DNA from: Podarcis liolepis
Taxonomy: Eukaryota
Strand: one strand, 5' to 3'
Assembly (NCBI GenBank): GCA_965112155.1
Contig: OZ218100.1
DNA: 64,000 nt
Positions 4,285-40,419 of this stretch are shown one piece after another (the stretch's first letter is position 1; each line of letters opens with the position of its first letter). The notes under the pieces are model-generated. The model was not told the DNA's origin and searched no databases. It saw nothing but the letters and a program-made list of their open reading frames with translations. Made by a program: the position numbers and the translations under genes.

Positions 4285-5563
4285 GTAGGCAGAGACTACA
4301 GTAAACCCACCACTTGCACACATTTAACTTGTGCGCATTCAGCTTTACGGCCCTGGCCAAAAAGCAAAAAAGAGGAGTGGAAAGGAGGCGGGCATCCATG
4401 AAAAAAGACTTTGGCAATCACACCCACCATTGCACCTGATGTGTTTTGACTATACACAATTTTGGCTTTCGGTGTGATCCCTGGAACATAACCCCTGTGT
4501 AAATTACCCTATTATGAAGCAACAGCTCTTGTTGAGATTAAGCAGATGTGGCTCAGTGAGTTGCATGGATGAGGATTTTGAGAGAAAGGGAGATATAAAA
4601 GGAAGAATCCGAATTAAAGAACTGCCCCTCCTTGGTGAATTTCGCCTGTGAATGCTTTGTTGTCTTTGGGGAAGAGGCAAAAGCTATTTAATTCTTTTCC
4701 ACCCTTAATTTGTGAAGACATTTTACTGCTGCTAGCTTACCACCTTCACCCTCCTGTTTTTATACTTGCATTGCTTTACTGCTGGTGCATTTTTTAAATT
4801 GACTTTTTTTCTGAGTAAGCACATTCATACATTTGGGTTGCAGATCTTGCTCCCCCCCCCTCCAGAATATTGTAAGGATCTGAAGTTAGACAGAATACAC
4901 TGTATGTTCTCTTTCTTAGCAAATCTTTTGCCTCCTGCTTCTTATTAGTGTAACCTGGGTATTTCTCGGGGTTATATTTTTGGCAGAGTTCACCATTCTC
5001 TCAATTTTAACAATGATCCATATGAAAGCTTCTTGATAGGCTTTAGCATTTCGGAAAAAGAGCCATGTCTAACAGAGGTCAACGCAGGCCACATTTTAGG
5101 CATATGTGGGCAGCTGCAGGAAAAGATTAGAGACAGGAGTCTTGGGTAACTGCTAGGGAGAAAGGGATATGGTAGAGTAGAGAGAGCTGCTGTGTCAATA
5201 TTTGATTGAGCTGTTGGCAAGTGCTGGAATTTCCCACTTGCAGGTGACAGATGCTGCTGTGGAGGAAGAAGGACCTGGCAGGAAGGCAGCCTCTGTTTCA
5301 TCCTGCTCGTCCTGTCCTGACTGGTAGCTCCAGTGGCAGAGAATCAAAAAGCAGCAGCTGAAATAAGAACGTCCTTGGCAGAAGGTAGGGATCAGGCAGA
5401 AATTTGATTCAGTTCACGTTTGAAGGCAAACCTACCTGAATCACACTATCCAAAGCAATACATGAAGCACAGCCATCCTTCAAAATCTGCATTTCTCAGA
5501 CTTTTGATGTATTACAGTATTTTAATATTTTTTTGGAAGCCGCCCAGAGTGGCTGGGGTATAA

Positions 5564-5620: not shown

Positions 5621-5953
5621 TTGTAATGCCGTTCTCCAGAAAAGTAATATGTAGGGTAAAGTGTGCATTTAAGTGCATATATGAGTGAAAATAACTTGCA
5701 AAAATGCACAATGTTAGGGGAAATTAGCTTGCGAAAATGTTATATCAGGCAAAAGTTCATAGAAAAATGTGTGCATTAGGAGATATTCACATTATGATTT
5801 TCATGAGCAATTTATAAAAAATCACAAGCTTATGTGGAAAACTGAACTTAAGGCTGGAAAAACAAGAAAGGGGAAAAACTGAAATTGACATACTCTTACA
5901 TCCATAGGAGAAGGTGAATTATGCCTTCAAACCCCTCCCACCCAAGTAGCTTA

Positions 5954-6303: not shown

Positions 6304-8351
6304 GTAGCTTACCTTCACCCAAACCTCTAAGCTATATGGGGTGGGGGGCTTTTTTGAGAGTTCTGCCTCTGAGTGGCTACTCAAATAAAGCTCACAAATC
6401 TGGGTTCTGCTCAGTGGGTGAATATTCTAATATCTCAAATGACACCATCAACAATTAATACCTGATGTCTTAAGAAGAACCTCTGCTGGTTTTTGAAGGA
6501 CCTCTTCAATTTTGAGGACACCCCATTTGTATGGTGGTATTGGTAACAATAAATTATAAGGAAATGTTTATAATAGTTATCCTGATCCTGGGAATGTGCT
6601 AACCTGCTCTGCAGTTATGAAATAGAATAGAAGTTATCTGGCTGATTTGTACTGTAAAGGAAACTGGCTATTTTGTATTGTCAATCTCCTGCAGCTTGAA
6701 AACTCCCTGAAGAGGAACTGCACCACTTAAGAGCCTCTTGTGCAATGCTGGCACTAAATAATTTCTAAATGGTAATAGCAAGAATAGGAGGAGGATATTA
6801 GCTGCTGTAATAAAATATTTGTACGTTACAAAACGTAAAGCAATTATATATTTAATGTATGTGCAGCACTGCTACCCTATTTATACAGGAAATACCATAA
6901 GATTGTAATTGGCTTTGGAGCATAGTAATAAACTCTGAAACAGTTTAAACTCCAAAACCTATTACTTAATTACTATTATGGAGCATAATAAAGGACAACT
7001 ACTTGACACAGGCTAACCGTAACAGTGCTTAGAATGTATTTGTGTCCCTGTACTTTATATATTGTTCACATTAAATGCACAAAAATCATTCTTTACTTCT
7101 AATAAGTACGCTAAGCTCTTGTGCTGGTCAGCAGAGGTCAAAGTTCTCTGTCTGAGTTCAAAAAGCCAGAAGGGTAACTTGGCCTGATGCTTCAGTATGA
7201 AGGCCACGACCTACTCTCTAATTACATCTGCAGAGCCCCCTGTTTAATACGCTTTTGTATATTTTTCTTTCTTTGTTATGGCTTTTCTTTGATGATTCAT
7301 TAAAAGAGGCAAACGCTTAATGATTACAGATGTCTTGTGACTTGGGAGACAAAAGGTAGATACCCTGGAATTTCTTTGTGGACAACCGGAATGTATGCTT
7401 GGAATTGCCTGCCCCCTCATTCATCCTTTTATATTCTGTGTGATTTTTTTACCCTCAAAAGAAGCATTTGAGAACCTTCAGAGTGTTGATAGTTTAGATA
7501 AGCTTTCCCTGGCCTGGTGCCTTTCAGAAGATCTGGACTGCAGGTTCCATGAACCCCAACAATCTAACAGCAAACACTGAGGTCTACTTTCTACCTGGAA
7601 GTCTAGTGTATGCGTGATTTTAAACTTGAAAGCCGAGAACAGAATTCTAACCTTTTATCAAGCTATGCTTGATAGCTGTATTCTACACTACTGCATGGCA
7701 GAATTCATATGGATTTTGTACAAAGCATGCCTTGCAACGCAGCCTATTTTCCAAACATTATAGGCCTAAGAAACAGAATGAGGTTGCTGCCTGCCCACTT
7801 AGTTTTATAAAGTGTCAGCAACAGACATTGCATGGAGTAGTTATAAGCATTCTCTTCCTTATATATTTTATCAGTGCCTCCTTCTTTCTTCCTTGGCTGC
7901 CTTTGCCTATACATTTCAAGCATCTGAATTTTATTTTATGTCATTTAGAAACAGAGGCTGATGTGAATTGCCCACCGGGGAACTCAATAGGAGCACTTGT
8001 TTATTCCATCCATATGGTTTCATTGTTGTTGTTACAAGTGAAGCCTGTTAAAAGGATACATCGGTGACAGGGGGAGGAATATTTTTACATAATACACACA
8101 TATGGGATTAACAACAGCAAAAAAATAAAAATAAAAATACACCCACAAAACCCAATGCAATTCCTAGAGACCATTTCATCAAATAATCCCATTCCAATTA
8201 CTATCCTTTTAGAATCTGTTTGCGGCACATCTTACAATGATCTCATGCCCTGATAAAGAGTAGAAGGTATCATATTGGATTGAACTGGCCCAACATTTGT
8301 TGCTAATCTAGAGATGCTTAGATCAGAGTCTCCATGAGTGGAATTCTGCCA

Positions 8352-16700: not shown

Positions 16701-18745
16701 CCTAAAGATAGGAGTTATTATGAATGCCTTTGGTTAGTGAAATCCAGCTACCGCTACAGGTAACATCTGACAACAATGAGCTGTGTCTATGCCATATCTG
16801 GGTAGGACTGCGGAGCTAGTTGTGTGATAGACACTTAGATGTGAGCAACTGCTGTTATAAATTGGGGTCCTCCAGCTTTCATGGATCCCATCAGATGCAG
16901 CCGGCATGAACAATTATGATGTGAGTTGTAGTCAACATCAACCGGAAGGCTTCCAGATTAGAAAAGCCTGACCCAGGAGTTCACGTCCATGATCAATAAG
17001 GTAGGCAGTCACATGGACCTTCCTCGTGGGATTAGGAGTACACCGAGGGGGTGCTGATTCTGTGGGGAAGAGCCACATAAAGAACCTCACTTGTGCCTGG
17101 GTGATTTAAGCATTCTCCAAGACGAATGGAAGCTGTCCAAAGATAATGGGATTCCGAACATCTGGGAGAACATCTAAAAGGCATCTAACACCTCTTTAAT
17201 GTGTACAATATTGTACCAAAGTGCTTTGGTTTGTTTGGGGTTTTGCTTTTGTTTTTTCAAAAGTCCAAGTAAGAGTAATGTTACTTTCTACTCTTCAGAT
17301 CTCCATATCCCACAGCAATTTGCCATTTAAAAAATCCTCATGGAAATTCACCAGCAAATTTCCCCTAATACAGACATTTTGTGTGCAAGTAATTTTCCAT
17401 AGTACAATGCATTTTTGTATGTTCCTTTCACCAGTTTATGCATCATAATGGCACTTCCCTCTGTGTGTCTTTTTGTACACACAGTTTGGCTGGAGGATTT
17501 CATTGCAACTTTAGTTTGCACCTTGGTGCAGTTAAGTAGCTGAACTAAGAATAAAGTAGTTTGTCATTAAAACTCAAGCAAATTTATCTTCCATCTCTTA
17601 GAACTCGGGCTCTTAAGCACCAGAACCAAGCTGTGTGTGAGGAACATTATGCTAAAAACCGGGGTCTATCTTTTGGTTTCTGCATCAGGTGTGGTGGAAC
17701 TTTGAAGCAATAAAGTGTTCCCATTCTTCTCTAACTGCTTTAGAGCTGATAAAGGAGGGAATTTTCTTTCATTTAGAAAATACTTCCCTTTCTCACGTCG
17801 TATTCTGAGAATGATTAGTGTAAAACACTCACAGTGCTATGTGATGATTTTACACCATAGATGGTTACAGGGAAAGTCAAGACCCAAGACTTTCAAACAG
17901 TTTTTAAAACAAGCAAATTGAAACAGTACTTCAAAGGAGGCCTGCTGCACTGGATAAGATTATCTTCCTGTTTCAAACTAGCCCCCTAGTGGAGACTTTG
18001 GATGCTGGAAAAAGCAAAGAGTGGTGATGAATGGCCAAATATAAACTTTTGTTATGCATTGATGTTTAAATATAAGATATGCTAAATATCTTGGAAACAA
18101 TTATTGGTGATTAGTTCAATTTGCTGGTTCCTGAAAGATGCAGATGGTGCAGCTGCAATGATCGTAATTACAGTTCAAATGCTTTAAATCCACTTGCAGC
18201 ATGCACGCTTTTAAAAACTTCTATGAATAAAAGGGGATTAAAAGCATTTGTGCCAAAATAAAATTTCTCTTCTTCTGCATCCGGTTGTGCAGAAAAACTG
18301 GCTAAATGTCTCTCGAAATTGCATCCTATATTATACAGTAAAAGAGAATTAATATGGCTGTGATTTAGGGAAACTGTAGGGGAAGGAATCAACTTAGAGA
18401 AGAGAGTTTTGTGTTTATGAAGAGTTTGCAGTTACTATACACACAGCATTTGCGCACAGAACTGAATATTTATTGTAATTTATAGCAGCCTATAAATGTC
18501 TCCATCTGCCACTTCAGTTATTTCTGACATTTTATTTAAAGCGACACGGTTAACACCAACACAGCCGGCAGCATCAGCAACACATTTGAGAGAGGCAGAA
18601 GCTAAATCTTTGCTAAGTGTTTTGGTACAAAATCATGAAGCAACCCTCACACATAAGATGTAATATAAAGTATAGGAAGACAAACCAGAAAACATCAGAA
18701 GAAAACGGTGAAGATGATTAAGAAGTAGCCATCTGGACATCTGAG

Positions 18746-19544
18746 TTGCATGTGAAGGTCCCCAAGCCACCCCTAAAAATAATTCACAAATCACACATAA
18801 TTTTTGTTTAAGGTTTTTGGCATAATTTTGGCCACAACTTTATTAAAATACATAATCTGTGAGTGATTGGTTATGACTATCTGTCCCCCCGCCTGGGACA
18901 GAACTGACTTTCTGAACTCCTTCGGAAGCCAGTGAAGGGAAAACAATGTTGGGGATCAGTTGAGCTGAGCAACAGTCCCTCACCGCTCACCCAACCAGCT
19001 CCCCAAGGCTTGCTGGCCCTGGTCCCATTTCAGGGATTGGACGAAATCGTGGCAAGCCCCAGGATTCCTTTAACGGAATTCCCTTCCACACCACCATTGG
19101 AGGGGCAGGCGCAGCCTATCCTGACCCCTCCTCCACCAATTTTTATAATCAATGCCTAACCGCAACCTTACAAGTTCTGACGAATTGCCAAGTAATAGGC
19201 AAAAACCAAATGGCACCAGCCAATCAGCCAAATGGACAAAATTCCTACTAGCCCCCTGCCCCAATGGCAGACGACCCCATGACAGGCATGGCAAGATTAA
19301 CCGGAACACAGGGCGGGCGGGCGGGTGATCCGATGCACGCTGCGAAAGAGAAAGCAAAAGCAGAGTGCCCCCAATATTTAAAGCCTTTGGTCCCACCCAC
19401 CCAATTTGCAACATTCAATTTGCCCCAGCAACCCGGTCATCCAATCGTTGCTTCAGGCAATCTCCATTTAACCTGCCTGGCAACAGAGGGTTGGCCTTGC
19501 AGACCCCACCGCAACACATGCTCTCATTTCAGGGAGAACACGCT
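18746..19544 (-). mobile_element. Solo A-C-B terminal unit of a Ngaro-family YR retrotransposon (diverged subfamily)
   Basis: Reverse complement starts AGCGTGTTCTCC, contains the conserved C spacer and AATAAAGTTGTGGCCAAA, and ends ...CATGCAA. Collinear with 39606-40419; no ORFs. Confidence 0.9.
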
Positions 19545-20556
19545 TTAGGTATAAATGGCCACGGGCTCCTTGCATAGACACCCATCATTAAGAGGATTCA
19601 GTGTGGATAAACTTGTAACATGTGCCAAGTGGAATCCGTGGGGAGCATTTCTTCCTCTTCCTGTGTGCCACATTGTAAGGCATGGCCAAGCTTTCCTTCA
19701 TTATCGCAACATTACACCTTTTAAGTTATAGTTTCTTTGCTTGTGCACTGGCTCTTGGCATCCCTTGATATTTCAGTCCCTTTCTTTGACCTTCCTTTCC
19801 TCTGGCTTCTTCATTTATCCAGGTATCAGAGTAGCCTTGTCCACACTACACTAAATACAGATACAAACTGTCTCTATACTTCCACATAGGTTTGTCTGAT
19901 ACAGGATACACTTGTAGATTTGTGCACCTCTACACAAATAGGCTACACACTTGGTGAATGTTCCATGTGAATCACTGGCCATGATCCTGACTAAACAGCA
20001 CTCCCTTAGGATCTGCCGGTGTGTCTTGTCTTGGAATTGCATGTCATTAGTTTTATTTATTTAGAATTCAAGTTCAATGTGGTTTTCAATGTAGTCCCCT
20101 GCATTTTTACTCAAAACACTTTGAGGTAGATCAGGCTTACTGTGACTAGCCCAAGGTCATCTAGTGGGTTTTATAGAAGTTGATTTTAAGTTCTTGTATT
20201 GTTTAAGAAAATGCAAATTGGTTTGCTTTTAAATGTGAACTGAATCAAATTTCTCCCCCAATCCCTAGGTTCATTAGATGTGATAAAGTGCATAACACAC
20301 CAGTACGGCTCACCAGGATAGGTCATGATCACTGAACTGATTCTGAAAAGAGAATTTTTCCCATCACAGCATGGATGAAAAAGCTGCTTCTGAGAAGTGT
20401 GACACATTTGGGCAAAGTATTACTTGCTAAGCACCAAGTCTTGGGCAGAGTTTAACAAAGAGCCTATCAACATTAATCATACTGTACTTTACTTAGAAAG
20501 GGCCATTGCCTCCGTTTCTTTCACTTGTTAACTCTGCTCAAAGGATCTATGATTTT

Positions 20557-22225: not shown

Positions 22226-23025
22226 AGCGTGTTCTCCTTCATGAAGAGCACGTGTTGCGGTGGGGACTGACAAGACACCCCACTGTTGCTGGGTGGGAAA
22301 ATAATGTTGGTCACTTTACAATTGGGTTCTACCTGTTGCTGGGGAGATTTAAATATTGCCATTTTGTGATTGACAGCCATAGCCTTTATATGCCCTGCAT
22401 GCAGCGTTGAGCTTCCTCTTTTCACTGCGCGCATCACCCTCCCTCCCTCCGTTGATTCAGGGTTGTTCGCTTGACCTTGGTATGCCTGTCATGGGGCCAT
22501 CTGCTTTTGGGGCAGGGGCCCGGTAGGAATTTTGTCCATTTGGCTGGTTGGATGGTGCCATTTGGTTTTTGCCTACTGCGTAGCAAATTGTCACAACTTG
22601 TAAGGTTTCAGTTAGGCATTGGTTTTATGAAATGGTTGGTGGAGGGGTATGGATTGGCCGTGCCTGCCCCTCCAAATGCTGCTACTGCAAGGGTATTCCA
22701 TTAAAGGAATCCAGGGGCTCCCCATGCTTTTGTCCAAACCCCTGTTAAGGGGCTAGGGCCACGCAAGAGCCCCTGGGAGCAGTTGAGTGCATGGCACCCA
22801 GCTCCGTCTCTCTCCCCAAAACGTTTTCTCTTTCTGACTTTGCGGCCGGTTGAATGTCAGTCTGTCCCCGTGCGGGGTCAGATAGTCACAACCAATACCT
22901 AAGCAACCACTCACATTTCTTGTATTTCAATAAAGTTGTGGCCAAAGTTATGCCAAAAACCTTAAACAAAAATTACGTGTCAATTGTGTTTTATTGGTGG
23001 GTGTCTTGGGCACCTCGACACGCAA
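22226..23025 (+). mobile_element. Solo A-C-B terminal unit of a Ngaro-family YR retrotransposon (diverged subfamily)
   Basis: Starts AGCGTGTTCTCCTTC, carries the conserved C spacer and AATAAAGTTGTGGCCAAA, ends GACACGCAA. Collinear with 39606-40419. Confidence 0.9.
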
Positions 23026-24034
23026 CACAGACTTGGTGCCTGAAACCAGCTCCACATCCATGGAGATCCTGCCATCTTCCATTCTGTGTACACTCATAAC
23101 TGAATAAAGTAATTTTTACCCTGCCTTTATATTTGCAGACTCTACAAGGCAACTCACAATGAAATTATGAAAAATAAACAAACAGTTCATATGTATGAAG
23201 AGTCATGCACTGAGAACCCAGCTGTGTAGAACTCACTCCCAGCTGAGATCAGACAGGCCCCCTCCCTACTGAACTCCAGGCACTAGACAAGGACCTCTCT
23301 ATTTCAGTGGGCACTTTCAGTAAGCTGTATTATGACTATTTTTTGAACTTCTGTTTCTACCTGCGGTTTTTTTATTGTAAAAAAATGCATTATGTATTGT
23401 TTCTTCATTGTTGTATGGATTGCTTTAGCACTGTCTATGGTGAAAAACAGTCTAGAAATGGTGGAAATAAAGTAAAACAAATAAAAACACATGCTGAACA
23501 GGAAAAAAAATAAACTGTCTACAGAAACAATGCAAAGAACTGAACTCATTAGCAGGTTTTGAGTAGACATTTACAAGTAACAAAATGTATATAAATTGTA
23601 AGATCAAATATAAAAAAAAATGATTGAGAAGGTGTTATGCAGGAAGTGATATTATGTTAAAATAAACCAGAGAGGTAGGTTGAGGGAAGTCCAGGGGGAT
23701 GGGAGGGAAGGGATAATTTGGGATTGATGAATTATGATGATGATATTTGTTACAATGAAATTTTGGAAAAAATGGAAAAATTAATAAAAATTAGAACAGC
23801 AGCACAGAACCCCAGTGCCAAAAAGAGAGAGAAGTTGGCAGAAGAGCTACAGTAAAAGCTAAGTTAAAAGCACAGGAAAATCACAGGAAAATAACATTAA
23901 CAGATACAGGTAATTAACATCCCTGTGTAAATAGTTACTCAAAGTCAAGGAACCATAACTAATAAAGTCTGTTCCCCATTAGCCACCCATTTAACTCTCA
24001 GGGCCTCAGCTGCACACCTTAAATGATGGGCAAG

Positions 24035-30800: not shown

Positions 30801-33134
30801 GTTTTAAAATAAATATTGGTCTCCATGTATTCCCCCGCCATCAATTGAAATCACTTGCCAAATGTGTTGTGCATATTCCAATCTTGACGTCTTTTAATCA
30901 CTTGCAATCTGTAATCCTCCTCATGTGGGAAGTGCAGGATAGAAATCAAATTCAATCAAAACAAACACAAACAAGTATAAACTTTTAGGCTTTTTGCCGG
31001 TAGTTTATGAACATTCCTGATAGCAGATAATTGTTAGCGATGGGGGAACACGCTTGTCTCAGGGGCATAGCCCACAATTCTCGACCTTTCAGTACCAGTT
31101 AGTGCTGGAAAATGAAGATAATGATTCCTAGTCAATTGGTGTGTCACACAACCCTGCCACCTTTCCTATCCTGCTGTACCAGTTTACAGCAAAAGCATAA
31201 CTATGCCTAACTCAGAAGGAAGTCCTGTTGAACTCAATAGTGCCTACACACGAGTAAGTGGGGATTGGAGTGTGATGCACTGGAAAATCCCAAACAAACC
31301 TAGGGTCCTGGATGCCGTGTGGTCCAGCAGCCACAACTGCCAAAACTGGCTAGAATAATCCCTCCCAGCCATTGAGAACAATTCATCCAAGACTAGATTT
31401 AAATCATGTTTCTTTCATTGACTCACTACTAGGTGGTCTTGCATGTAGGGCAAACTGGTTATAAACAAGCCGATGAGTAAGAAAAGAAGCCTCCATTTAT
31501 TACATTTCAAACTCTTTCCTAAGGCTTGAGGCAGGAAATGGATTTTTTTCATCTGGTTGAAAGGGACCTGGAAAAGCCGCAATGCCTGAGGTATGCTCAT
31601 CCAGCTATGCTTTCTCACGGACAAGCGTTCGATTGTACAGTTTTGTAGCTTTTCGAGAATTTCAAAACCTCTTAACCTGTTTGTTCAAGGATGATAATGG
31701 GGGGGGGGGGGAGTTCATTCAACAAGTGTGCAATTCAACAGATGAAATGGTGTGTAAGTCAACAGGTGTGCACTCTTTCCCCCAAACAGTTGTACATGTG
31801 TAGCGACAGTTTGTGTTCAACGTAACATACAGGCAAGCCTGTTAGAGAGAGAGAAAAAAAATAAATTGAACATATAACCAACCACATCTTGTGTCACCAT
31901 AACAGGGCAGTGGCATGTTCAGAGACCAAGTACATGCTTTCATGTATAGGGTCCAAAGTTCAATATCTGCCCAAAATGGGGGCAGGTGATGGGACATATC
32001 TTGTAGGGGAGGGTGTCAGGCCAATCAACATAGAGAAAATGGGGAACTTGAGAACTTCCAGATGTTGCTGGACTACAGCTCTCCCTCTCGCCAAGTATTG
32101 GCCATGCAGGCTGGGAATTATGGGAGTCCACCAACATCTGGAGAGCCATAAGCTTCCCACCACTGTTTTAAATGTTCTCAAGAACCATTGTCTGTTTTTA
32201 ATACCTTTTCTCAAGGACTGATTCATGGTTATGAGTAATACATTCAGAAATAGGTTAAGTACCATTTACGCACCAGTTTTATATCTATCATCTTCATTAA
32301 AATGTGCATTTCTTTGTAATGCTCCCTGGGACACAATATGCATTTCTTATGTGGTTCTCACTGCTCAGCAAGTTTCCCACTTCTATTCTATATAGACCAC
32401 ACTTATAAAATACCACAGATGTCTATTTCAAAAGGTTACCATTTCTCTCAGTGTATCCATTTTCAAATTAAATGTGACCAACCACTTAGAAATACAAGCA
32501 AGGAAACTTACTTGCATTAATTTAATTGAGAGTAAATAAACAAACAGAACACACGAGTTCAACACAATTCACTCATCACTGAACAGGATTAACAACTTCC
32601 TTCTTCAAGGAATAATGAAGGCAGCATTTTAAAGGGTATCCCCTGGGTATAGCTATAATTTTCAAAATTAGAATATTGGTAAACACTTCTTTTTAAGACC
32701 ATCAATTATTTTCTTGGCACAGCAACACTTCCAAGCATGTAAAGAACCACTGCATTGTGATGGTTCTATTTAAGCATTTCTTTAATTGGATCATTAAATG
32801 CTGTTGTTTTAATATCAATTTTCTTAATGCTACCGGGCAGGTTGGTATCAGACTTTGTGAAATAAGGTCACTTCCCCTCCACAGTCTGCACCTTCTGAAA
32901 AAGCAGGCAAATATGCTTTTCATTACTGAGTAATGGGGTTAAGGGGGAAAAAACAATATAAAATTGGAAAGTGGGATTTTGCCATCTCCTTCCACAAATA
33001 TGTAATGATTCAAGGTTAAGAATGCAATCCTATACTCACTTTCTTGGGAACAGACCCCACTAAACTCAATGAGGTTTAATTCAGAGTGGTGCTCAACTGG
33101 AGTTGTCTCCCTGGCAAGGCCTTCTTGGTGGCAG

Positions 33135-33349
33135 GGCGTGTTCTCCTTCAAAATGAGAGCACGTGTTGCGGTTGGGAGAATACAAGCCACCCTGCTGTTA
33201 CTAGGCAGTTTTGGATAAAGGCAGAATCCTTAAAGGGTTAATTGAGTTACTGGGGAGTTTAGCACGTTGCCAATTTCTGGAGGAGGGCAGAGGCTATAAA
33301 TACAGGTCGCTTACGTCAGGGCGTCCTCTTGGCCTCTGCATTGGATCAC
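33135..33349 (+). repeat. Split direct repeat A1 (215 bp)
   Basis: Matches 39606-39820 except one T/C difference (33342 vs 39813). Confidence 0.97.
33295..33318 (+). promoter_or_regulatory. TATA box (TATAAATA) and downstream CRE-like TTACGTCA in repeat A; duplicated in A2 at ~39766-39789
   Basis: Motif about 50 nt before the end of A; the solo copies have TTTAAATA at the equivalent position. Confidence 0.6.
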
Positions 33350-33549
33350 GGAGCAGATCGTGTCTGGAGCCGGTTGTATTTTAAGCGTATATTTTCGCTG
33401 CTTCTAATTACTGCTTGTTTTCTCTTAAGTCCCCTTCTGCCTTTGTTCCTTCCTCCTTTTGTCTTAATTCCCTCCCACACTCCCTCCCTTTATTTTCCCG
33501 TTTATTTGCCTACCTTTTCCTGAGTTAATTTTAATTGTGTTTAAACAGC

Positions 33550-34130
33550 GTTTTACCGGGAGTGGACTCCGCCCCCCCCCCAGCCCGGGGGAGGCTTTCC
33601 TCCCGGCCTCGGGGAAGCCCCCGCGCTCTTACCGGGCCGCGGCCCACTCTTCCATTCCCCCCCTCCAAGCTCCGTAGTTGCGGAGCGCCCCCGGGGAACC
33701 CTCCTCCTTCCCTCCCACCGCCGCGTGGCCGGCGCTTACCTGGATTCACTGCGTGGGTGGCCGGATTAGGCCCTATTCTCTCCTGGGGGCCGTTACCGCG
33801 TGCGGCGGTCTCCCGGCGTTCCAGGCCGGGCCCGCGCGGCTGCGCCACGGCGCCGAGGGAGCGCTTGCCGGCGGGGTTTCCACAGGCCTCATTTTGAGCG
33901 CTTGAACGGCCCGCCTGTCCCGCGCTAACGCGCAAGGGCTTGCCGGACCCGGGGTGTCGTCGCCGCTGCGGCCTGAGCCCGCTGCGGCCTGGTAACATTT
34001 TTGCTGCGTAATCCCGGTTAGCTCCGCCATTTTCTTTGTGTCTTGCCGGCGTGGTGCTCCCCCTGGTGGCGCTGAGGGGTACTGCGCCTCTGTTGGATTG
34101 ATTGAGGAGCTAGGCCGCACCTCCTTCCTA
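33550..34130. promoter_or_regulatory. CpG island in the Ngaro leader with YY1 (34024-34033) and CTCF (34056-34070) motifs
   Basis: Very high GC/CpG content; CCGCCATTTT; GCTCCCCCTGGTGGC (reverse complement GCCACCAGGGGGAGC). Confidence 0.55.
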
Positions 34131-34285
34131 CCCCCCCTGCTGGCCGTTTGGGTACTGCACCCTGTCTATTTGCTTTATTTAAGCTGGTCAAGCATAATTG
34201 TTGCCTGGTATTGTTTTTTCTTGCCTCTGGGCCGGCTCTGAGGCCTCACAGGTTGGCTCCAGCGCTTAGGAGAGTTTAGTTAGTG

Positions 34286-34286
<1 letters not shown>

Positions 34287-34319
<33 letters not shown>
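34287..34319. repeat. (GATA)n microsatellite inside the Ngaro leader
   Basis: Direct reading. Confidence 0.9.
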
Positions 34320-34525
34320 TAGTTATTTAGACATACCTTTGGGCTAACATTTGGCCAAGAGTTATTATTTATTTATAACTTCTGCATAGATTGCAATTGA
34401 AGAGGGCTACTGAGTAGTAGCTGGTGGTAGGCCCAACAGTGGGTAGTGGTTGGAGGTTGCTAGCGGTTTATCTGCTGTATTGCTGGGAATTTAACTGGTT
34501 TTGATTTTATTTCCTGCTAGCAGGT

Positions 34526-36052
34526 ATGGCTCCAAAGAAAGCTGCTGCTCGCTCCAGCTCTGCTATCACTTCAAAACGGCCTATTAGAGGTCCATCCCAG
34601 GCGCTTCGTTCACCCCCTTCCAGCCAACCAGTGGGGCGAGTGCAATCATTGGTGGAAGGCATGGCCGGTGACCCTGCAGCTTTATCTCGCTTCGCAGCGG
34701 ATTTGGACGCCTTCTTGCAGCATCGTTCCGCCCAACCGTCCACATCTGGAAGGCTGCCCTCCTCAACATTGGTGGCGTCTACGGTTTCATCATCATCTAG
34801 CGAGGATGAGGGGGAGGGATCGTCGCCACAGGGTTTAATTTTGAATCCACAGTTATCCCAGTCCCCTGATGTACCTGCAATTCGGAACCAGCCTCGGAGG
34901 TCGGGCCGCCTCTCCGGGCGGGCCTCCAGAAAAAGTGCCCCTTTGGCCGCATCCACTCGCCGGCGTACGCCCGCCCGGTCTCCCACGGATGGGGCATCCG
35001 CTTCTGGTATCTCACGTGTTCTCTCTATGCAGTCTGTTTCAGTTCCGCCTCAACCGAATCCCGATTCGGAGTCCTCTAACGAAGACAGTCTACCGGTCCC
35101 TGCCAGGAGGTCGCTGGGAGGGAAGCGTCGCCACAAGAGGTCATCCCGAAAGCGTGCAAAGCGGAGGAAGGATGACTCTTCTTCCTCTCTTTCGGGTACG
35201 TCTTCCTCTAGTTCTGACGATGAGGGTAGTCATATGGAACTTTATTGGGGTTTTGGCGAATCGGTTTCAGGGCTTCCTCGGTGGGCTTGGGAGCGCAGGT
35301 CCAACACGCATCGGGCGAAATATGGAGCTGTTCAGGAATGCAGGGATGGCGTGTTGGTTCCTGACGTTAAAGTCTCAACTAACTCGGCCAGGGACATCAT
35401 TCCGGGCTCACATTTGTCATCGAAATTGCGTTCCCGGATATTAAATGGACGTTACGTGGACATGTTCAAACTGGCCCCACCTTCTGAGGAACAAGAGAAG
35501 GGGAGTGTTTCAACCAAAAAACGCTCAGGGGTCTCTGCGGCAGGCAGGACTTTTGAACATTGGCTTGACTCCTTTCAGGTCTTTGCTGGTATAGTTATGG
35601 CAGCCTATCCGCGTAGGTCCCTTCATTTGTTGGTTTATTTATCCATCGTGCGCTCTGCCTTTACCAAGGCTGGGGAAAAAGCTGCGATCAAATATGATGA
35701 GAATTTTAGGCGTCGTGCGGCTAAGATTCCCTCCGCACGCTGGGATCGGAAAGATCTAGATGTGTGGACTACTTACGTGGCTCCGCTTATTGACAAAAAG
35801 GTGCCGGAGCAACAGAAATTGGGTATCTCTCCTTTTAGGCCTGGCCGTCGGTTGCCTTGTTGGGATTTTAACAGGGCTTCTTGTCAGCGTTCAACATGTA
35901 GATTTGCGCACACTTGTGAGAAATGCAATGGATTGCATCCGGCTTCCTCTTGTTTTGGTGGGCGGCGGCCCTTTCGTGGAGGAAAAGGGGGCTCTCAACA
36001 ACCCCCCAAGTCAGTCCCCCCCACACCCTCAACCTCAGGTACAGCAAAATAA
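34526..36052 (+). CDS. gag: Ngaro ORF1, Gag-like protein (508 aa)
   Basis: Ser/Arg-rich N-terminus with a basic NLS-like patch, YDENFRRR core, C-terminal CX7CX4CX3H and CX2CX3HX4C zinc fingers; first AUG after the promoter. Confidence 0.88.
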   Translation: MAPKKAAARSSSAITSKRPIRGPSQALRSPPSSQPVGRVQSLVEGMAGDPAALSRFAADLDAFLQHRSAQPSTSGRLPSSTLVASTVSSSSSEDEGEGSSPQGLILNPQLSQSPDVPAIRNQPRRSGRLSGRASRKSAPLAASTRRRTPARSPTDGASASGISRVLSMQSVSVPPQPNPDSESSNEDSLPVPARRSLGGKRRHKRSSRKRAKRRKDDSSSSLSGTSSSSSDDEGSHMELYWGFGESVSGLPRWAWERRSNTHRAKYGAVQECRDGVLVPDVKVSTNSARDIIPGSHLSSKLRSRILNGRYVDMFKLAPPSEEQEKGSVSTKKRSGVSAAGRTFEHWLDSFQVFAGIVMAAYPRRSLHLLVYLSIVRSAFTKAGEKAAIKYDENFRRRAAKIPSARWDRKDLDVWTTYVAPLIDKKVPEQQKLGISPFRPGRRLPCWDFNRASCQRSTCRFAHTCEKCNGLHPASSCFGGRRPFRGGKGGSQQPPKSVPPTPSTSGTAK

Positions 36053-37658
36053 GGTGCTGACTTCCTTGGCCCAGACTCCCATACGTCTGCCGGCCCTTAA
36101 AAAGTGGCTCAGGTTTTACCCAGATAGGGAGGCCGCTCGTTACCTGAGCGATGGTTTTTCTGTTGGTTTTCGGATTCCAGTAGCCATGCCCCCCGTGGCT
36201 CGGAATTCGGCTAATCAGAAATCAGTTCGTGAATTGCCCGAAATTGCCCGAAAAAAGATCACAAAGGAGGTGGCTATGCATCGGATGGCTGGCCCCTTTT
36301 GTGCCCCTCCATTTCCAAAATTGCATGTTTCCCCATTGGGCATCGTGCCAAAGAAAGCCCCTGGTGAATTCCGTTTGATTCATAATTTATCACACCCTAG
36401 GGGTACTTCAGTTAACGATGTGATTCCTCCAGAGCTTTGCTCAGTTAAGTATGCCTCTCTTGATCACGCGATCAAGATGATTCGAAAATTTGGACCAGCT
36501 GCTTTATTGGCAAAATGCGACATAGAGTCGGCATTCCGTTTGCTGCCGATTCATCCTGAGGATTTTTGGCTGCTCGGTTTCCAGTTTGAGGGAAAATACT
36601 ATTTTGACAAAGCCATGCCCATGGGTTGTTCAATAGCGTGCGCAGCTTTTGAATCTTTCAGCACCTTTTTGGAATGGGCCCTCAAGTTGAAAACCGGGTT
36701 GGATGGGGTTACTCATTATTTGGATGATTTTTTATTGGCTTCTGATTGTAATACTGACAATTGCTCGGTTCTGTTGCGTGCTTTAGCTGCCCTTACTGAG
36801 GAAATAGGGGTCCCGTTAGCGGCGGAAAAGACTGAGGGTCCCTCGACTCAGCTTACGTATTTGGGTATCCTTTTGGATACGGTGTCTCAAACTTCCAGCT
36901 TGCCTAAGGATAAGCTGGTGGCTTTAAAAAAGGTTATAGAGGAATTGCTTCCCTTAAAGAAGGTGTCCCTACTGCAAATCCAATCGCTGTTAGGTCACCT
37001 GAATTTTGCCTGTAGGGTGGTGGCCCCGGGTCGCCCCTTTTGCTCTCGTTTGGCTCGCCTCACGGTGGGCTTGAAGGCCCCGCATCATCGTGTCCGTCTT
37101 TCTAGGGAGGTGAGGGCTGATCTCAGCATATGGCTTGAATTTTTGGAGGAATTCAATGGGGTATCGCTATGGCAAGACACTTTGAACTTGCAGAACGATT
37201 TTCAGGTGCATTCAGACGCAGCAGGGTCCCAAGGTTTTGGCCTATATTGGATGGGCAGGTGGTGTGCCAAGCGCTGGCCTCTTGATTGGCAGGGAACAGC
37301 CATTACGCGGGACCTAACTTTTCTTGAGTTCTTTCCCATTGCAGTGGCAGTGCACTTGTGGGTCGAAGAGTTCAGGGACCGACGCGTCTGCTTCTGGACT
37401 GATAACCAGGCGGTGGTGAATGTGCTGGCCAAGCTGTCGTCCCGCTCTCCTAGGGTGTCGGCCCTTTTGCGGGCTTTTGTTTTACATTGTTTACGTTATA
37501 ACATAGTGTTTTCTGCTCGTTTTGTTCCGGGGGTGTCTAACGAAATTGCCGATGCTCTGTCCCGTTTTCAGATGGAGCGGTTCAGACTTCTGGTTCCAGA
37601 GGCTCGGAAACGTCCGGAATGTTTCCCGGATCATCTCTGGAGCCTTGGCAGGAGCTAG
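35760..37658 (+). CDS. pol: Ngaro ORF2, reverse transcriptase/RNase H (true start uncertain)
   Basis: RT motifs PKK..G.FRLIHNLS, KCDIESAF, MPMG, YLDDF; RNase H motifs SDAAGS.G.G, LEFFP, TDNQ, NEIADALSR. Confidence 0.95.
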   Translation: MCGLLTWLRLLTKRCRSNRNWVSLLLGLAVGCLVGILTGLLVSVQHVDLRTLVRNAMDCIRLPLVLVGGGPFVEEKGALNNPPSQSPPHPQPQVQQNKVLTSLAQTPIRLPALKKWLRFYPDREAARYLSDGFSVGFRIPVAMPPVARNSANQKSVRELPEIARKKITKEVAMHRMAGPFCAPPFPKLHVSPLGIVPKKAPGEFRLIHNLSHPRGTSVNDVIPPELCSVKYASLDHAIKMIRKFGPAALLAKCDIESAFRLLPIHPEDFWLLGFQFEGKYYFDKAMPMGCSIACAAFESFSTFLEWALKLKTGLDGVTHYLDDFLLASDCNTDNCSVLLRALAALTEEIGVPLAAEKTEGPSTQLTYLGILLDTVSQTSSLPKDKLVALKKVIEELLPLKKVSLLQIQSLLGHLNFACRVVAPGRPFCSRLARLTVGLKAPHHRVRLSREVRADLSIWLEFLEEFNGVSLWQDTLNLQNDFQVHSDAAGSQGFGLYWMGRWCAKRWPLDWQGTAITRDLTFLEFFPIAVAVHLWVEEFRDRRVCFWTDNQAVVNVLAKLSSRSPRVSALLRAFVLHCLRYNIVFSARFVPGVSNEIADALSRFQMERFRLLVPEARKRPECFPDHLWSLGRS

Positions 37659-38542
37659 TTTTTCAGGGAGTAATGGCTTCTATTTCCCCTTCTACTCTCA
37701 GGTCATACACCAAAGCATGGACTGATTTTTTGTCCTTTACATATCAGCCAGCCGGGGAGCAAAGGTGGACTTCCCCCTCCACTTCTCAGGTGCTAAAATA
37801 TTTGGCGCACCTGTTTCAGTTGGGACGTGCAGCTAAGACGCTAAGAATTCAGGCAGCTGCTATTGCCTTTTTCTGCAAAGCTTATTTCGACAAAGATCCT
37901 TGCGCTAAGTTTGCCGTGCGTAAGGCCCTGGAGGGATGGGGTAGGCTTTGTCCTTCCCAGCCAGCTACTAGGCACCCTATCTCATATGATTTGCTGTGCA
38001 AGATGCGCAAAGAGTTGAGGAAGGTTTGCTGGTCCAGGTATGAGGCTCGCCTTTTTTCTGCGGCCTTTTCTATTGCTTTCTTCGGAGCACTAAGGGTGGG
38101 TGAGCTCGTATGGGAGGAGCACAAAAATGGCCGTTCTAGGGGATTATTGCTTCAGGATGCGCAGCTATCTCCGGATGAGCTGAGACTCCTCATTAGGAAC
38201 TCAAAAACGGATCAGGGTGGAAGGGGAGCCCTCATTCGTCTCCCGGCTACAAGGGAGGTGGGACCGTGTCCGGTCAAAGATGTCAGGAAGTACTTGTCCA
38301 TCCGGGCCCCGGGGGAAGGTCCACTGTTGCAGCATGAAGATGGGTCGCCTCTGTCTAGGCGACAGTTTGCAAGGGTGATGCGGAAGGCCATTGCGGCTTG
38401 TGGTGATTCTGCTAGTGGTTTTGCCCCACACTCTTTCAGGATTGGGGCTGCCACGACGGCAGCGCATTGGGGCCTGTCTGCAGGCAGAATAAAGAATTTG
38501 GGTCGCTGGAAGTCGAACGCGTTTCGAGGCTATGTTCGCTAA
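37619..38542 (+). CDS. Ngaro ORF3, tyrosine recombinase
   Basis: Complete catalytic set: R (ALRVGEL), K (SKTDQ), HxxR (HSFRIG), W (GRW), Y (FRGYVR). Confidence 0.95.
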   Translation: MFPGSSLEPWQELVFQGVMASISPSTLRSYTKAWTDFLSFTYQPAGEQRWTSPSTSQVLKYLAHLFQLGRAAKTLRIQAAAIAFFCKAYFDKDPCAKFAVRKALEGWGRLCPSQPATRHPISYDLLCKMRKELRKVCWSRYEARLFSAAFSIAFFGALRVGELVWEEHKNGRSRGLLLQDAQLSPDELRLLIRNSKTDQGGRGALIRLPATREVGPCPVKDVRKYLSIRAPGEGPLLQHEDGSPLSRRQFARVMRKAIAACGDSASGFAPHSFRIGAATTAAHWGLSAGRIKNLGRWKSNAFRGYVR

Positions 38543-38576
38543 CATGATGTTTTTTGTATTTTGTTGTCTATACCAG

Positions 38577-39151
38577 GTTTAGCAGCCGTACGCATATGGA
38601 TGGTGGGGCACAGTATCGTACATTGGGCCGGCGTTGGAGCCAGGCAGCTCAGATTGGGACCAGGTCTTGGCCTTCCTCCTCACGTGCACGTATCTTGGCT
38701 GGCCAGAAGGGGAATGTCCTGGACAGAGTTTCTGCCACTGATTCGTAGGCAGCTGGCTGAGAAAGGGTCGCCCACGGCCATCGTGGTGCAGCTGGGTGAG
38801 AATGACCTGGTTTCTATGGACTGTGCTTCGTTACGTGCAGCTATCCTGGGTGATCTTGAAGTGCTGCGAGCAATGGTGCCGGCAGCAAAAATTTTCTGGT
38901 CAAAGCTTTTGCAAAGGCGCAGTTGGAGAGGCAGTCGTTGCCCAACTGCCACCGAAAGGGCTAGGAAGCGGATCAATTCGGCGGTCTCAAAAAAGGTTTT
39001 TGAGTTGGGAGGTGACGTGATTTCCCATCCTGAGATTCTGGCCAGGGATGAATCACTTTTCAGAGATGATGGGGTGCATCTTTCAGCTTTAGGGAACAAG
39101 GCGTGGCTGGGTGCTGTGGTGGCTAAGCTAAGGTCTTGGCTGGGTTTGTGA
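38577..39151 (+). CDS. Ngaro ORF4, SGNH/GDSL hydrolase (esterase), probably entered through a splice acceptor at 38576/38577
   Basis: Block I WMVGHSI, block II RRG, block III QLGEND, block V DGVH; open to TGA at 39149-39151; no AUG upstream of the block I strand. Confidence 0.85.
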
Positions 39152-39179
39152 GTGGTTTGGCGGCGAGCGTAGGGCTCCA

Positions 39180-39605
39180 TTGGCGGTTAGGCATTGGTTA
39201 AAATTGGTTGGTCGAGGGGTAAGTGCCTACCCCTCCAATGGTGGTGTGAAAAAGGGAATTCCGTTAAAGGAATCCAGGGGCTTGCCATTCATTCGTCCTT
39301 GTCCCCGGAGTCGGACCTGGGCCGTGCAAGCCCCACAGGAACATGAGGGTGAGAGGTGTGGGACTGTTACCCAGCTTCACCTTCTCACCCAATACTTGTT
39401 TCCCAGGCTGGCTTCCGCTGGAATCCGGAAGGCCAGCCCTGTCCATGGGCGAGGACAGATAGTCATAACCAATGCCTAAGCAACCACTCACGTATTTGTA
39501 TTTTAATAAAGTTGTGGCCAAAATCATGCCAAAAACCTTAAACAAAATTAACGTGTGAAGTGTGAATTATTTGGTGAGGGTGGCTTTGTGGGACTCAACA
39601 CGCAA
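39180..39605 (+). repeat. Split direct repeat B1 (426 bp)
   Basis: Identical by eye to 39994-40419 (offset 814). Confidence 0.97.
39505..39510 (+). terminator. Polyadenylation signal AATAAA in B1; second copy at 40319-40324 in B2
   Basis: AATAAAGTTGTGGCCAAA is conserved in all four B copies and followed by a GT-rich tract. Confidence 0.6.
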
Positions 39606-39820
39606 GGCGTGTTCTCCTTCAAAATGAGAGCACGTGTTGCGGTTGGGAGAATACAAGCCACCCTGCTGTTACTAGGCAGTTTTGGATAAAGGCAGAATCC
39701 TTAAAGGGTTAATTGAGTTACTGGGGAGTTTAGCACGTTGCCAATTTCTGGAGGAGGGCAGAGGCTATAAATACAGGTCGCTTACGTCAGGGCGTCCTCT
39801 TGGCCTCTGCATCGGATCAC
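39606..39820 (+). repeat. Split direct repeat A2
   Basis: Copy of 33135-33349. Confidence 0.97.
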
Positions 39821-39993
39821 CCGCCCACCCTCCCTTTTATAAGGGGGGGTTTCTGGTTATTTGACCTTGCTATGCCTGTCATGGGGTCGTCCGCCTTGGT
39901 GCGGGGGCCTGGTAGGAATTTACCATTTGGCTGATTGGCTGGTGCCATTTGGGTTTCGCCTACTGCGTAGCAAATAAGTCACAACTTGTAAGG

Positions 39994-40419
39994 TTGGCGG
40001 TTAGGCATTGGTTAAAATTGGTTGGTCGAGGGGTAAGTGCCTACCCCTCCAATGGTGGTGTGAAAAAGGGAATTCCGTTAAAGGAATCCAGGGGCTTGCC
40101 ATTCATTCGTCCTTGTCCCCGGAGTCGGACCTGGGCCGTGCAAGCCCCACAGGAACATGAGGGTGAGAGGTGTGGGACTGTTACCCAGCTTCACCTTCTC
40201 ACCCAATACTTGTTTCCCAGGCTGGCTTCCGCTGGAATCCGGAAGGCCAGCCCTGTCCATGGGCGAGGACAGATAGTCATAACCAATGCCTAAGCAACCA
40301 CTCACGTATTTGTATTTTAATAAAGTTGTGGCCAAAATCATGCCAAAAACCTTAAACAAAATTAACGTGTGAAGTGTGAATTATTTGGTGAGGGTGGCTT
40401 TGTGGGACTCAACACGCAA
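39994..40419 (+). repeat. Split direct repeat B2
   Basis: Copy of 39180-39605. Confidence 0.97.

Follow-up and report, generated by a model that had tools for sequence, protein, structure and literature searches.

A covarying RNA fold in the A2-B2 spacer of a Podarcis liolepis Ngaro-type retrotransposon: a candidate start signal for reverse transcription

The element, its repeats and its copies

The window, a stretch of 64,000 nucleotides of Podarcis liolepis DNA (assembly GCA_965112155.1, contig OZ218100.1), carries at 33131-40418 an element that is assigned, by its repeat layout together with its gene content, to the Ngaro-type tyrosine-recombinase (YR) retrotransposons and is intact (Table 1). 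Self-alignment of the element revealed split direct repeats in the order A1...B1 A2 B2, fitting the Ngaro layout, and four overlapping open reading frames (ORFs) encode a Gag-like protein, a reverse transcriptase (RT)/RNase H (RH), a tyrosine recombinase and an SGNH hydrolase; a Pfam search of these ORFs gave no match to a methyltransferase. Relatives of ORF2 were found in squamates, amphibians and other records, with LTR/foamy-type RTs as the nearest solved structures. The top matches of ORF4 were from Podarcis, and the closest proteins of the element as a whole were from Podarcis and Zootoca. A GATA microsatellite is located at 34286-34319, within the long 5' untranslated region. The B1-A2 junction, where both element ends match the junction sequence, is a putative att-like circle junction, and A2, with its TATAAATA, may drive a short a'-C-B RNA. 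In the Chlamydomonas element TOC1, a unique spacer of 123 bp is present between A2 and B2.

Table 1. Coordinates of the features in the window
Feature	Position	Strand	Remarks
Solo A-C-B copy, "19 kb"	18745..19546	-	C core 19153-19300
Solo A-C-B copy, "22 kb"	22229..23026	+	C core 22471-22618
Repeat A1, left end	33131..33349	+	Promoter-like, TATA near 3' end; 99% identity with A2 (2 differences in 219)
ORF1, Gag-like	34505..36052	+	Inferred from position and a C-terminal Cys/His cluster; no Pfam match
ORF2, reverse transcriptase/RNase H	35760..37658	+	RVT_1, E 7e-13
ORF3, tyrosine recombinase	37541..38542	+	Phage_integrase and SAM-like matches under curated cut-off
ORF4, SGNH/GDSL hydrolase	38543..39151	+	Lipase_GDSL_2, E 2e-6 (SGNH under curated cut-off)
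B1 5' flank	39158..39186	+	TGGCGG, covarying hairpin, TGGCGG; same layout in full elements
Repeat B1	39180..39604	+	425 nt, identical to B2
B1-A2 junction	39597..39613	+	Inverted repeat around AAG
Repeat A2	39602..39820	+	TATAAATA at 39766-39773
Four CCC runs	39820..39834	-	At A2-C boundary; G-quadruplex motif on minus strand (predicted)
Spacer C	39821-39993		Between A2 and B2
C core fold	39861..39987	+	P0 39862-65/39978-81; P1 39867-74/39966-73; small hairpin 39875-84
C core P2 and P3		+	P2 39885-94/39901-09 with bulged G39889; P3a 39910-16/39959-65; P3b 39923-31/39944-52 with tandem U-U
U-rich internal loop of P3	39917..39958	+	ENE-like; 39917-22 opposite 39953-58
Long-range helix, template side	39978..39987	+	GTCACAACTT; competes with P0
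Repeat B2, right end	39994..40418	+	AATAAA 40319-40324; closing stem 40001-40011/40283-40293; conserved CCA 40343-40345
Long-range helix, 3'-end side	40323..40332	+	AAGTTGTGGC; complementary to 39978-39987

The Ngaro layout, within the DIRS order, has been described for Xenopus DIRS-53_XT and Cafeteria Ngaro (PMC9210276, PMC8547959), and the window element shares with them the A1-ORFs-B1-A2-B2 repeats, the Gag-RT/RH-YR-SGNH gene order and the occurrence of solo AB copies; the accessible parts of these descriptions give no A2-B2 spacer structure, long-range helix or boundary motifs. VIPER/SIRE of Trypanosoma cruzi likewise has a unique A2-B2 stretch and a short A-spacer-B element, although the SIRE spacer is about 30 bp and the accessible part of the report describes no structure or priming role for it (PMC6681497).

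Spacer C's element has thousands of relatives in the host genome: the B motif gave 8222 exact genome matches versus 2 for a control, and the C motif pattern gave 5710 versus 11. Copies were sampled in three ways, namely by three DNA searches with C as query (a sample biased to C), by a B pattern irrespective of C (99 copies analysed among the first 100 matches listed, on contig 1), and, for full elements, through SGNH searches, with the spacer delimited from self-alignment alone. Extraction with a hidden Markov model yielded 190 distinct C cores with a mean identity of 74%; a loose pattern with many false matches was discarded. Statistics were calculated on 185 of the 190 cores, leaving out 5 broken or very diverged rows, and 64 representative cores were aligned on sequence alone. 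A metagenome pattern scan gave 52 matches, none with RT, YR or SGNH, which were taken as chance, and no relative was found in the viral contigs searched. Three metagenome contigs (L261, L287 and L289) carried an unrelated repeated hairpin that matches the 3' arm of the search pattern and has no RT nearby.

Among the 99 listed B-selected copies, 74 had a whole C, 7 a partial C, 3 lay behind SGNH and 15 had neither, and just one of the 99 was contained in a full element. A-C-B solos therefore dominate, although recombination between B1 and B2 is expected to be easier than between A1 and A2; copying of the solos in trans would explain this dominance, and selection against long copies could also explain it. 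Several elements (L216, L220, L221, L225 and L234) stop cleanly at the B1 end behind SGNH, without A2-C-B2, and are regarded as the reciprocal product of A-C-B solos, via B1-B2 recombination or via the recombinase at the inner junction.

The fold of spacer C

Conservation of C was measured in the 66 of the 99 B-selected copies that had a whole C at the usual distance. Mean column identity was 0.745 at 39863-39995, compared with 0.60 for B and 0.50 for A, so that C is the best long stretch; the claim of the initial annotation that it is the most conserved non-coding segment holds to that extent, but the best 133-nt window begins at 39903, and the B motifs at 40283-40333 are equally conserved.

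The helices P1, P2 and P3 lie where they had been placed before, and the 30 base pairs proposed then were paired in 93.1% of cells in the 64 representatives, compared with 37-50% for slid controls. Double changes occurred at 13 of the 30 pairs, in 106 cells versus 35 in shuffled alignments. In a tree-aware test, whose null preserves tree, composition and rates, 14-18 same-branch compensations were counted in these pairs, versus a null of 2.8 +/- 1.9 with a maximum of 11 in 2000 runs, so that P2 and P3 covary across families and not solely in the three copies from which their covariation had been claimed. On internal branches the pair was kept in 58 of 81 changes, with 42 expected. Paired columns changed about half as often as unpaired columns on internal branches (1.56 versus 3.07) and nearly as often on terminal branches (3.36 versus 3.61), which is the pattern that selection during copying, rather than after insertion, should produce. 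Furthermore, paired columns contained 219 G-U cells versus 38 A-C cells, an excess that indicates sense-strand RNA. P1 is nearly invariant and hardly covaries, and the T-A to C-G swap that had been cited for it is private to the 19 kb copy (1/91 and 1/64).

Single-copy folding was weak, with z only -1.0 to -1.2; the RNAalifold consensus comprised 16 pairs only, limited to P1, P3a and three P2 pairs; and an R-scape-like all-pairs test on the 185 of 190 cores (about 31 effective sequences) placed no single pair under E 0.05, the best being E 4.7, although the top 3 of its 9453 pairs were all among those proposed in the initial annotation. Taken together, the C core fold is real and covaries across diverged families. 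P0, P1, P2, the U-rich loop and CACAACT are all present in an old family (L303-L322) whose copies are 75-83% alike, and the fold therefore predates the active families.

A three-way junction had been proposed. A junction is indeed part of the covarying fold, but the core is predicted to form mostly a four-way junction, and a three-way form appears only in one family with a 4-nt linker. The additional arm is the small hairpin at 39875-84, which covaries, two of its pairs showing 26 double changes each. The junction strand that had been called invariant, CTGTCATGG, occurs in only 16 of the 64 representatives and in most families belongs to a hairpin of 2-4 bp. A pseudoknot with the P3 loop was not conserved, reaching 4.1 bp versus 3.8 bp in shuffles, and the alternative stem suggested as a switch attained its 8 bp in only 22 of 64.

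Conservation of C might instead reflect factor-binding sites in DNA (CCAAT, YY1-like and antisense TATA); the minus strand of the window copy does carry CAGCCAATCAG at 39930-40 and TATAAAAG at 39836-43. However, the CCAAT-like ATTGG of the P3 loop is present in only 37 of 64 representatives and missing from intact families, and the antisense TATA is missing in both solos. The compensatory changes found by the tree-aware test and the excess of G-U over A-C contradict this explanation, which is scarcely credible as the cause of the conservation.

The covariation also supports the view of C as a new compact RNA motif, and Rfam searches gave no match in the window (E up to 5) or in seven family loci; hammerhead and HDV ribozymes were, as noted earlier, among the motifs without a match. 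Ribozymes are common in retroelements, and a compact, covarying multi-way junction within one would suit a self-cleaving ribozyme of a new class. The junction strands, however, vary in both length and letters and contain almost no conserved unpaired bases, no known ribozyme motif was found by Rfam, and a cut within C would part the 3' end from its template. Self-cleavage, which had been one of two functions proposed for C, is thus very improbable.

The internal loop of P3 is composed of AA and a U run facing a U run and YG, between G-C helices. At least three U are present on each side in 60 of 64 representatives and at least four in 46, a content that agrees with the U-rich definition of ENE elements; A39917 and U39955 are present in all 64. 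G-C pairs flank the loop on both sides in 50-61 of 64, with AA and YG separating the lower pairs from the U runs, and the tandem U-U of P3b moves its position yet persists across families. ENE and double ENE elements have been described in KSHV PAN, rice TWIFB1 and Arabidopsis Evade (PMC7583470, PMC13541005, PMC12501189), and the P3 loop resembles them, its triplex being putative; differently from an ENE, spacer C has short U runs, extra AA and YG, and a multi-way-junction setting. The accessible parts of the ENE reviews name plant, fungal, slime mould and stickleback elements and no YR elements.

It can be argued on this basis that C is a stability element only, in which the fold and the long-range helix described below would retain the poly(A) tail through triple-helix formation and delay decay of the full-length RNA, while priming follows another route. 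The U-rich loop between G-C helices and the second, tandem U-U agree with such a role, and ENEs sit in the 3' regions of retrotransposons, where they are reported to raise mobility (PMC12501189, PMC7583470). On the other hand, the U runs are short, with at most three U on one side in 18 of 64 (AAUUUA/GUUUCG in the window copy), the conserved AA and YG can close the loop through non-canonical pairs, and the upper domain is missing in one family. The invariant P1, CACAACT and the fixed place at the B boundary are not needed by an ENE alone. We therefore consider stabilization as the sole function unlikely.

The long-range helix and the repeat boundaries

The most invariant letters of C form CACAACTT (39980-87), which is complementary to a motif behind the AATAAA of B2. 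Its CACAACT (39980-86) comprises the most invariant unpaired letters, with positions kept in 60-64 of 64 representatives, and complements AGTTGTG directly behind AATAAA. When the 8-mers conserved in 70% or more of 236 units were compared, no other complementary pair was present (0.0009 expected). The 3' end of the RNA is accordingly predicted by thermodynamic folding to fold back onto C through a long-range helix, which was contained in the minimum free energy (MFE) fold of 12 of 19 copies, lay within 0.7 kcal of it in 15 and within 2.7 kcal in all (2.3-2.7 kcal above the MFE in four), and had a probability of 0.82 in the window copy. When the partner was scrambled, the helix was lost in 12 of 12 cases (0.23-0.99 decreasing to 0-0.43). 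Because the helix is invariant, covariation cannot test its pairing except in one copy of 212: in the old copy L307 both sides are altered in step, the sole matched double change among the 212.

The long-range helix closes the B domain, in which a nested inner stem covaries, and the a'-C-B RNA as a whole folded with z -4.3. The linker between the helix and B varied most, occurring in 92 forms among 235 copies, which would suit a joint. GTC is kept at the U-G of the helix in nearly all copies, and the end of C is therefore not simply recopied from the primer. In L362, L367, L371 and L384, the T run behind CACAAC differs in length between close relatives, covering 4-12 nt. Further hairpins are found in B at 40072-40086 and 40223-40250, and one of the conserved 7-mers of B, TAAAGGA, is a loop sequence. 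Roughly 20 nt 3' of AATAAA, a CCA recurs across families, and its copy at 40343-40345 is a predicted cleavage site; since this site lies about 13 nt past the helix, priming would require a trimming step. In contigs from presumed-RNA runs, C and B are covered and coverage falls off from about 40360-40380 onward with no poly(A) end, a pattern confounded by copy divergence. The P3 loop is about 370 nt 5' of the presumed poly(A) tail in sequence and adjacent to it in the predicted fold.

Pairing next to AATAAA could also act as an RNA-processing switch that, together with an acceptor-like pyrimidine-AG, tunes splicing or the choice between the poly(A) sites of B1 and B2. The helix covers the last two bases of AATAAA, only B2 has an upstream partner whereas B1 has none, and a strong 3'-splice-acceptor-like sequence lies 5' of the C core in several families (L395 and L396, where it is tandemly repeated; L113, L116, L124 and L334). 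Nevertheless, the AG is absent from several intact families (the acceptor-like sequence is missing in L227-L229 and L235), and a four-way junction with an invariant P1 exceeds what site masking needs, so that we consider a switch of this kind improbable.

The ends of the repeats are marked as well. In 26 of the 31 elements compared, including one from outside lizards, A1 and A2 cease to be identical no more than 5 nt from four CCC runs (background 0.00035); in the remaining 5 the CCC runs are bulged or shortened. Read as GGG on the minus cDNA, these runs form a predicted G-quadruplex motif; in the RNA they could instead be bound by poly(C) proteins. Identity between B1 and B2 begins at or inside TGGCGG, just after C, and the B1 5' flank is a candidate plus-strand start. 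In full elements with RT identity down to 62%, the spacer measured 156-183 nt and B began 2-20 nt behind CACAACTT. The sequence just 3' of A1 (33350-33400 in the window) varies even between closely related elements and in many cases duplicates the final bases of A, which may be a remnant of strand transfer.

Outside lizards, TGTGGCGG was found behind SGNH in 4 of 5 contigs examined. Both boundary motifs are also present in the contig L404, whose RT is 44% identical and which is filed in a bacterial metagenome-assembled genome and is probably host DNA, and there the offset of the CCC runs from the A end is 0. The lizard C core model gave no match in 14 non-lizard loci, including the 1258-nt spacer of L404. 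In L404, a long hairpin at 5892-5930, near the likely B-A junction, has an arm complementary over 9 nt to the C-B2 boundary (7441-7449), not clearly above chance. In L414, GGTTGTGGC follows SGNH at 4438-4450, and its complement GCCACAACC follows AATAAA about 600 nt downstream. This pair has the letters of the lizard long-range helix with the two sides exchanged, is present in one of five contigs and may be due to chance.

A candidate start signal for reverse transcription

On the basis of the fold, the complementarity and the boundaries, we suggest that spacer C is likely a reverse-transcription start signal that holds the 3' end of its own RNA, the likely primer, a reading to which we assign a probability of about 0.5. 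C would be present only in RNA that reads through B1 and the B1-A2 junction, or that started in A2, and would therefore tag copyable RNA. In such RNA, B would fold as one long domain that is closed by the long-range helix, so that the 3' end comes to lie next to P1; the U-rich loop would receive the poly(A) tail in the manner of ENE elements. RT would bind the junction and P1, and the 3' end would be trimmed, with RNase H as the candidate, and then extended, so that minus-strand DNA would begin at the 3' edge of C. Synthesis of plus-strand DNA would set out from the GCGG boundary of B1 and be halted by the minus-strand G-quadruplex formed by the CCC runs; the stalled B1-A2 fragment would transfer to a'1, which would render both repeat pairs identical, and the recombinase would insert the circle. 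The same signal is present in short A-C-B RNAs, for which copying in trans would be possible. We infer all steps from the capture of the 3' end onward.

Both repeat pairs stay identical within an element while families diverge widely, and therefore each pair stems from one template per cycle. A retrovirus-like scheme would suffice for this if the minus strand starts at the 3' edge of C and the plus strand runs from the B1 boundary to the A2-C boundary. A more complete version, in which Ngaro RT is primed on a folded-back 3' end with a long-range helix, a poly(A) triple helix, a four-way junction and a G-quadruplex stop, C is a complete replication origin and the solos are its parasites, is put forward tentatively and is rather doubtful as a whole.

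Hepadnaviral epsilon is a structured RNA that tags copyable RNA and sets the start of minus-strand DNA, and the initial annotation had likened C to it in proposing an RT priming signal. Although this was the stronger of its two proposals, the evidence favors capture of the RNA's own 3' end over epsilon-type protein priming. With protein priming, C would serve as a packaging or RT-loading signal at whose bulge RT primes itself before moving to the C-B edge. The sequence-invariant P1 and the bulged G39889, kept in 56 of 64 representatives, would suit recognition by a protein, and C would mark only copyable RNA. However, epsilon is an unbranched stem-bulge-stem-loop whereas C is a three- or four-way junction near the 3' end; the terminal-protein domain of epsilon's partner RT has no counterpart in any of 75 RTs searched (Pfam, at sequence level only); and the nearest solved RT relatives are LTR-type. 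Protein priming would also leave the invariant complementarity to the 3' end unexplained, and we regard it as quite unlikely.

Among elements that prime without a tRNA, fission yeast Tf1 self-primes using its RNA 5' end; the model proposed for spacer C likewise relies on the RNA's own end, but on the 3' end. For DIRS-1, the primer is stated to be unknown, a proposal of self-priming from a 3' hairpin has been cited, and RT acts in trans (PMC7192593, accessible part). The DIRS-1 proposal and the model for C are thus alike in using the RNA's own end as primer and no tRNA, but DIRS-1 has inverted repeats and a local hairpin, whereas spacer C has a predicted helix to a site 345 nt away and a conserved four-way junction. 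A literature search, mostly without subscription papers, found no Ngaro spacer structure, ribozyme, ENE or G-quadruplex, and the original Ngaro descriptions may mention the spacer or the boundary motifs. The element and the anatomy of its spacer are already known; that search gave no description of the C fold, its long-range helix or the G-runs at the boundary.

The 130-nt covarying RNA, the 10-bp helix and the 15-nt G-run motif are given here with exact coordinates. They offer a candidate start signal for tyrosine-recombinase retrotransposons, in which the start of reverse transcription has been stated to be unknown (PMC7192593, accessible part), and the proposed model accounts for the repeat pairs staying identical as well as for their end points. 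With spacer C, an animal YR element may join those known to carry an ENE-like structure. Moreover, the origin and mobility of the short A-spacer-B element SIRE are described as open (PMC6681497, accessible part), and the findings may bear on the origin of both solo A-B and SIRE elements.
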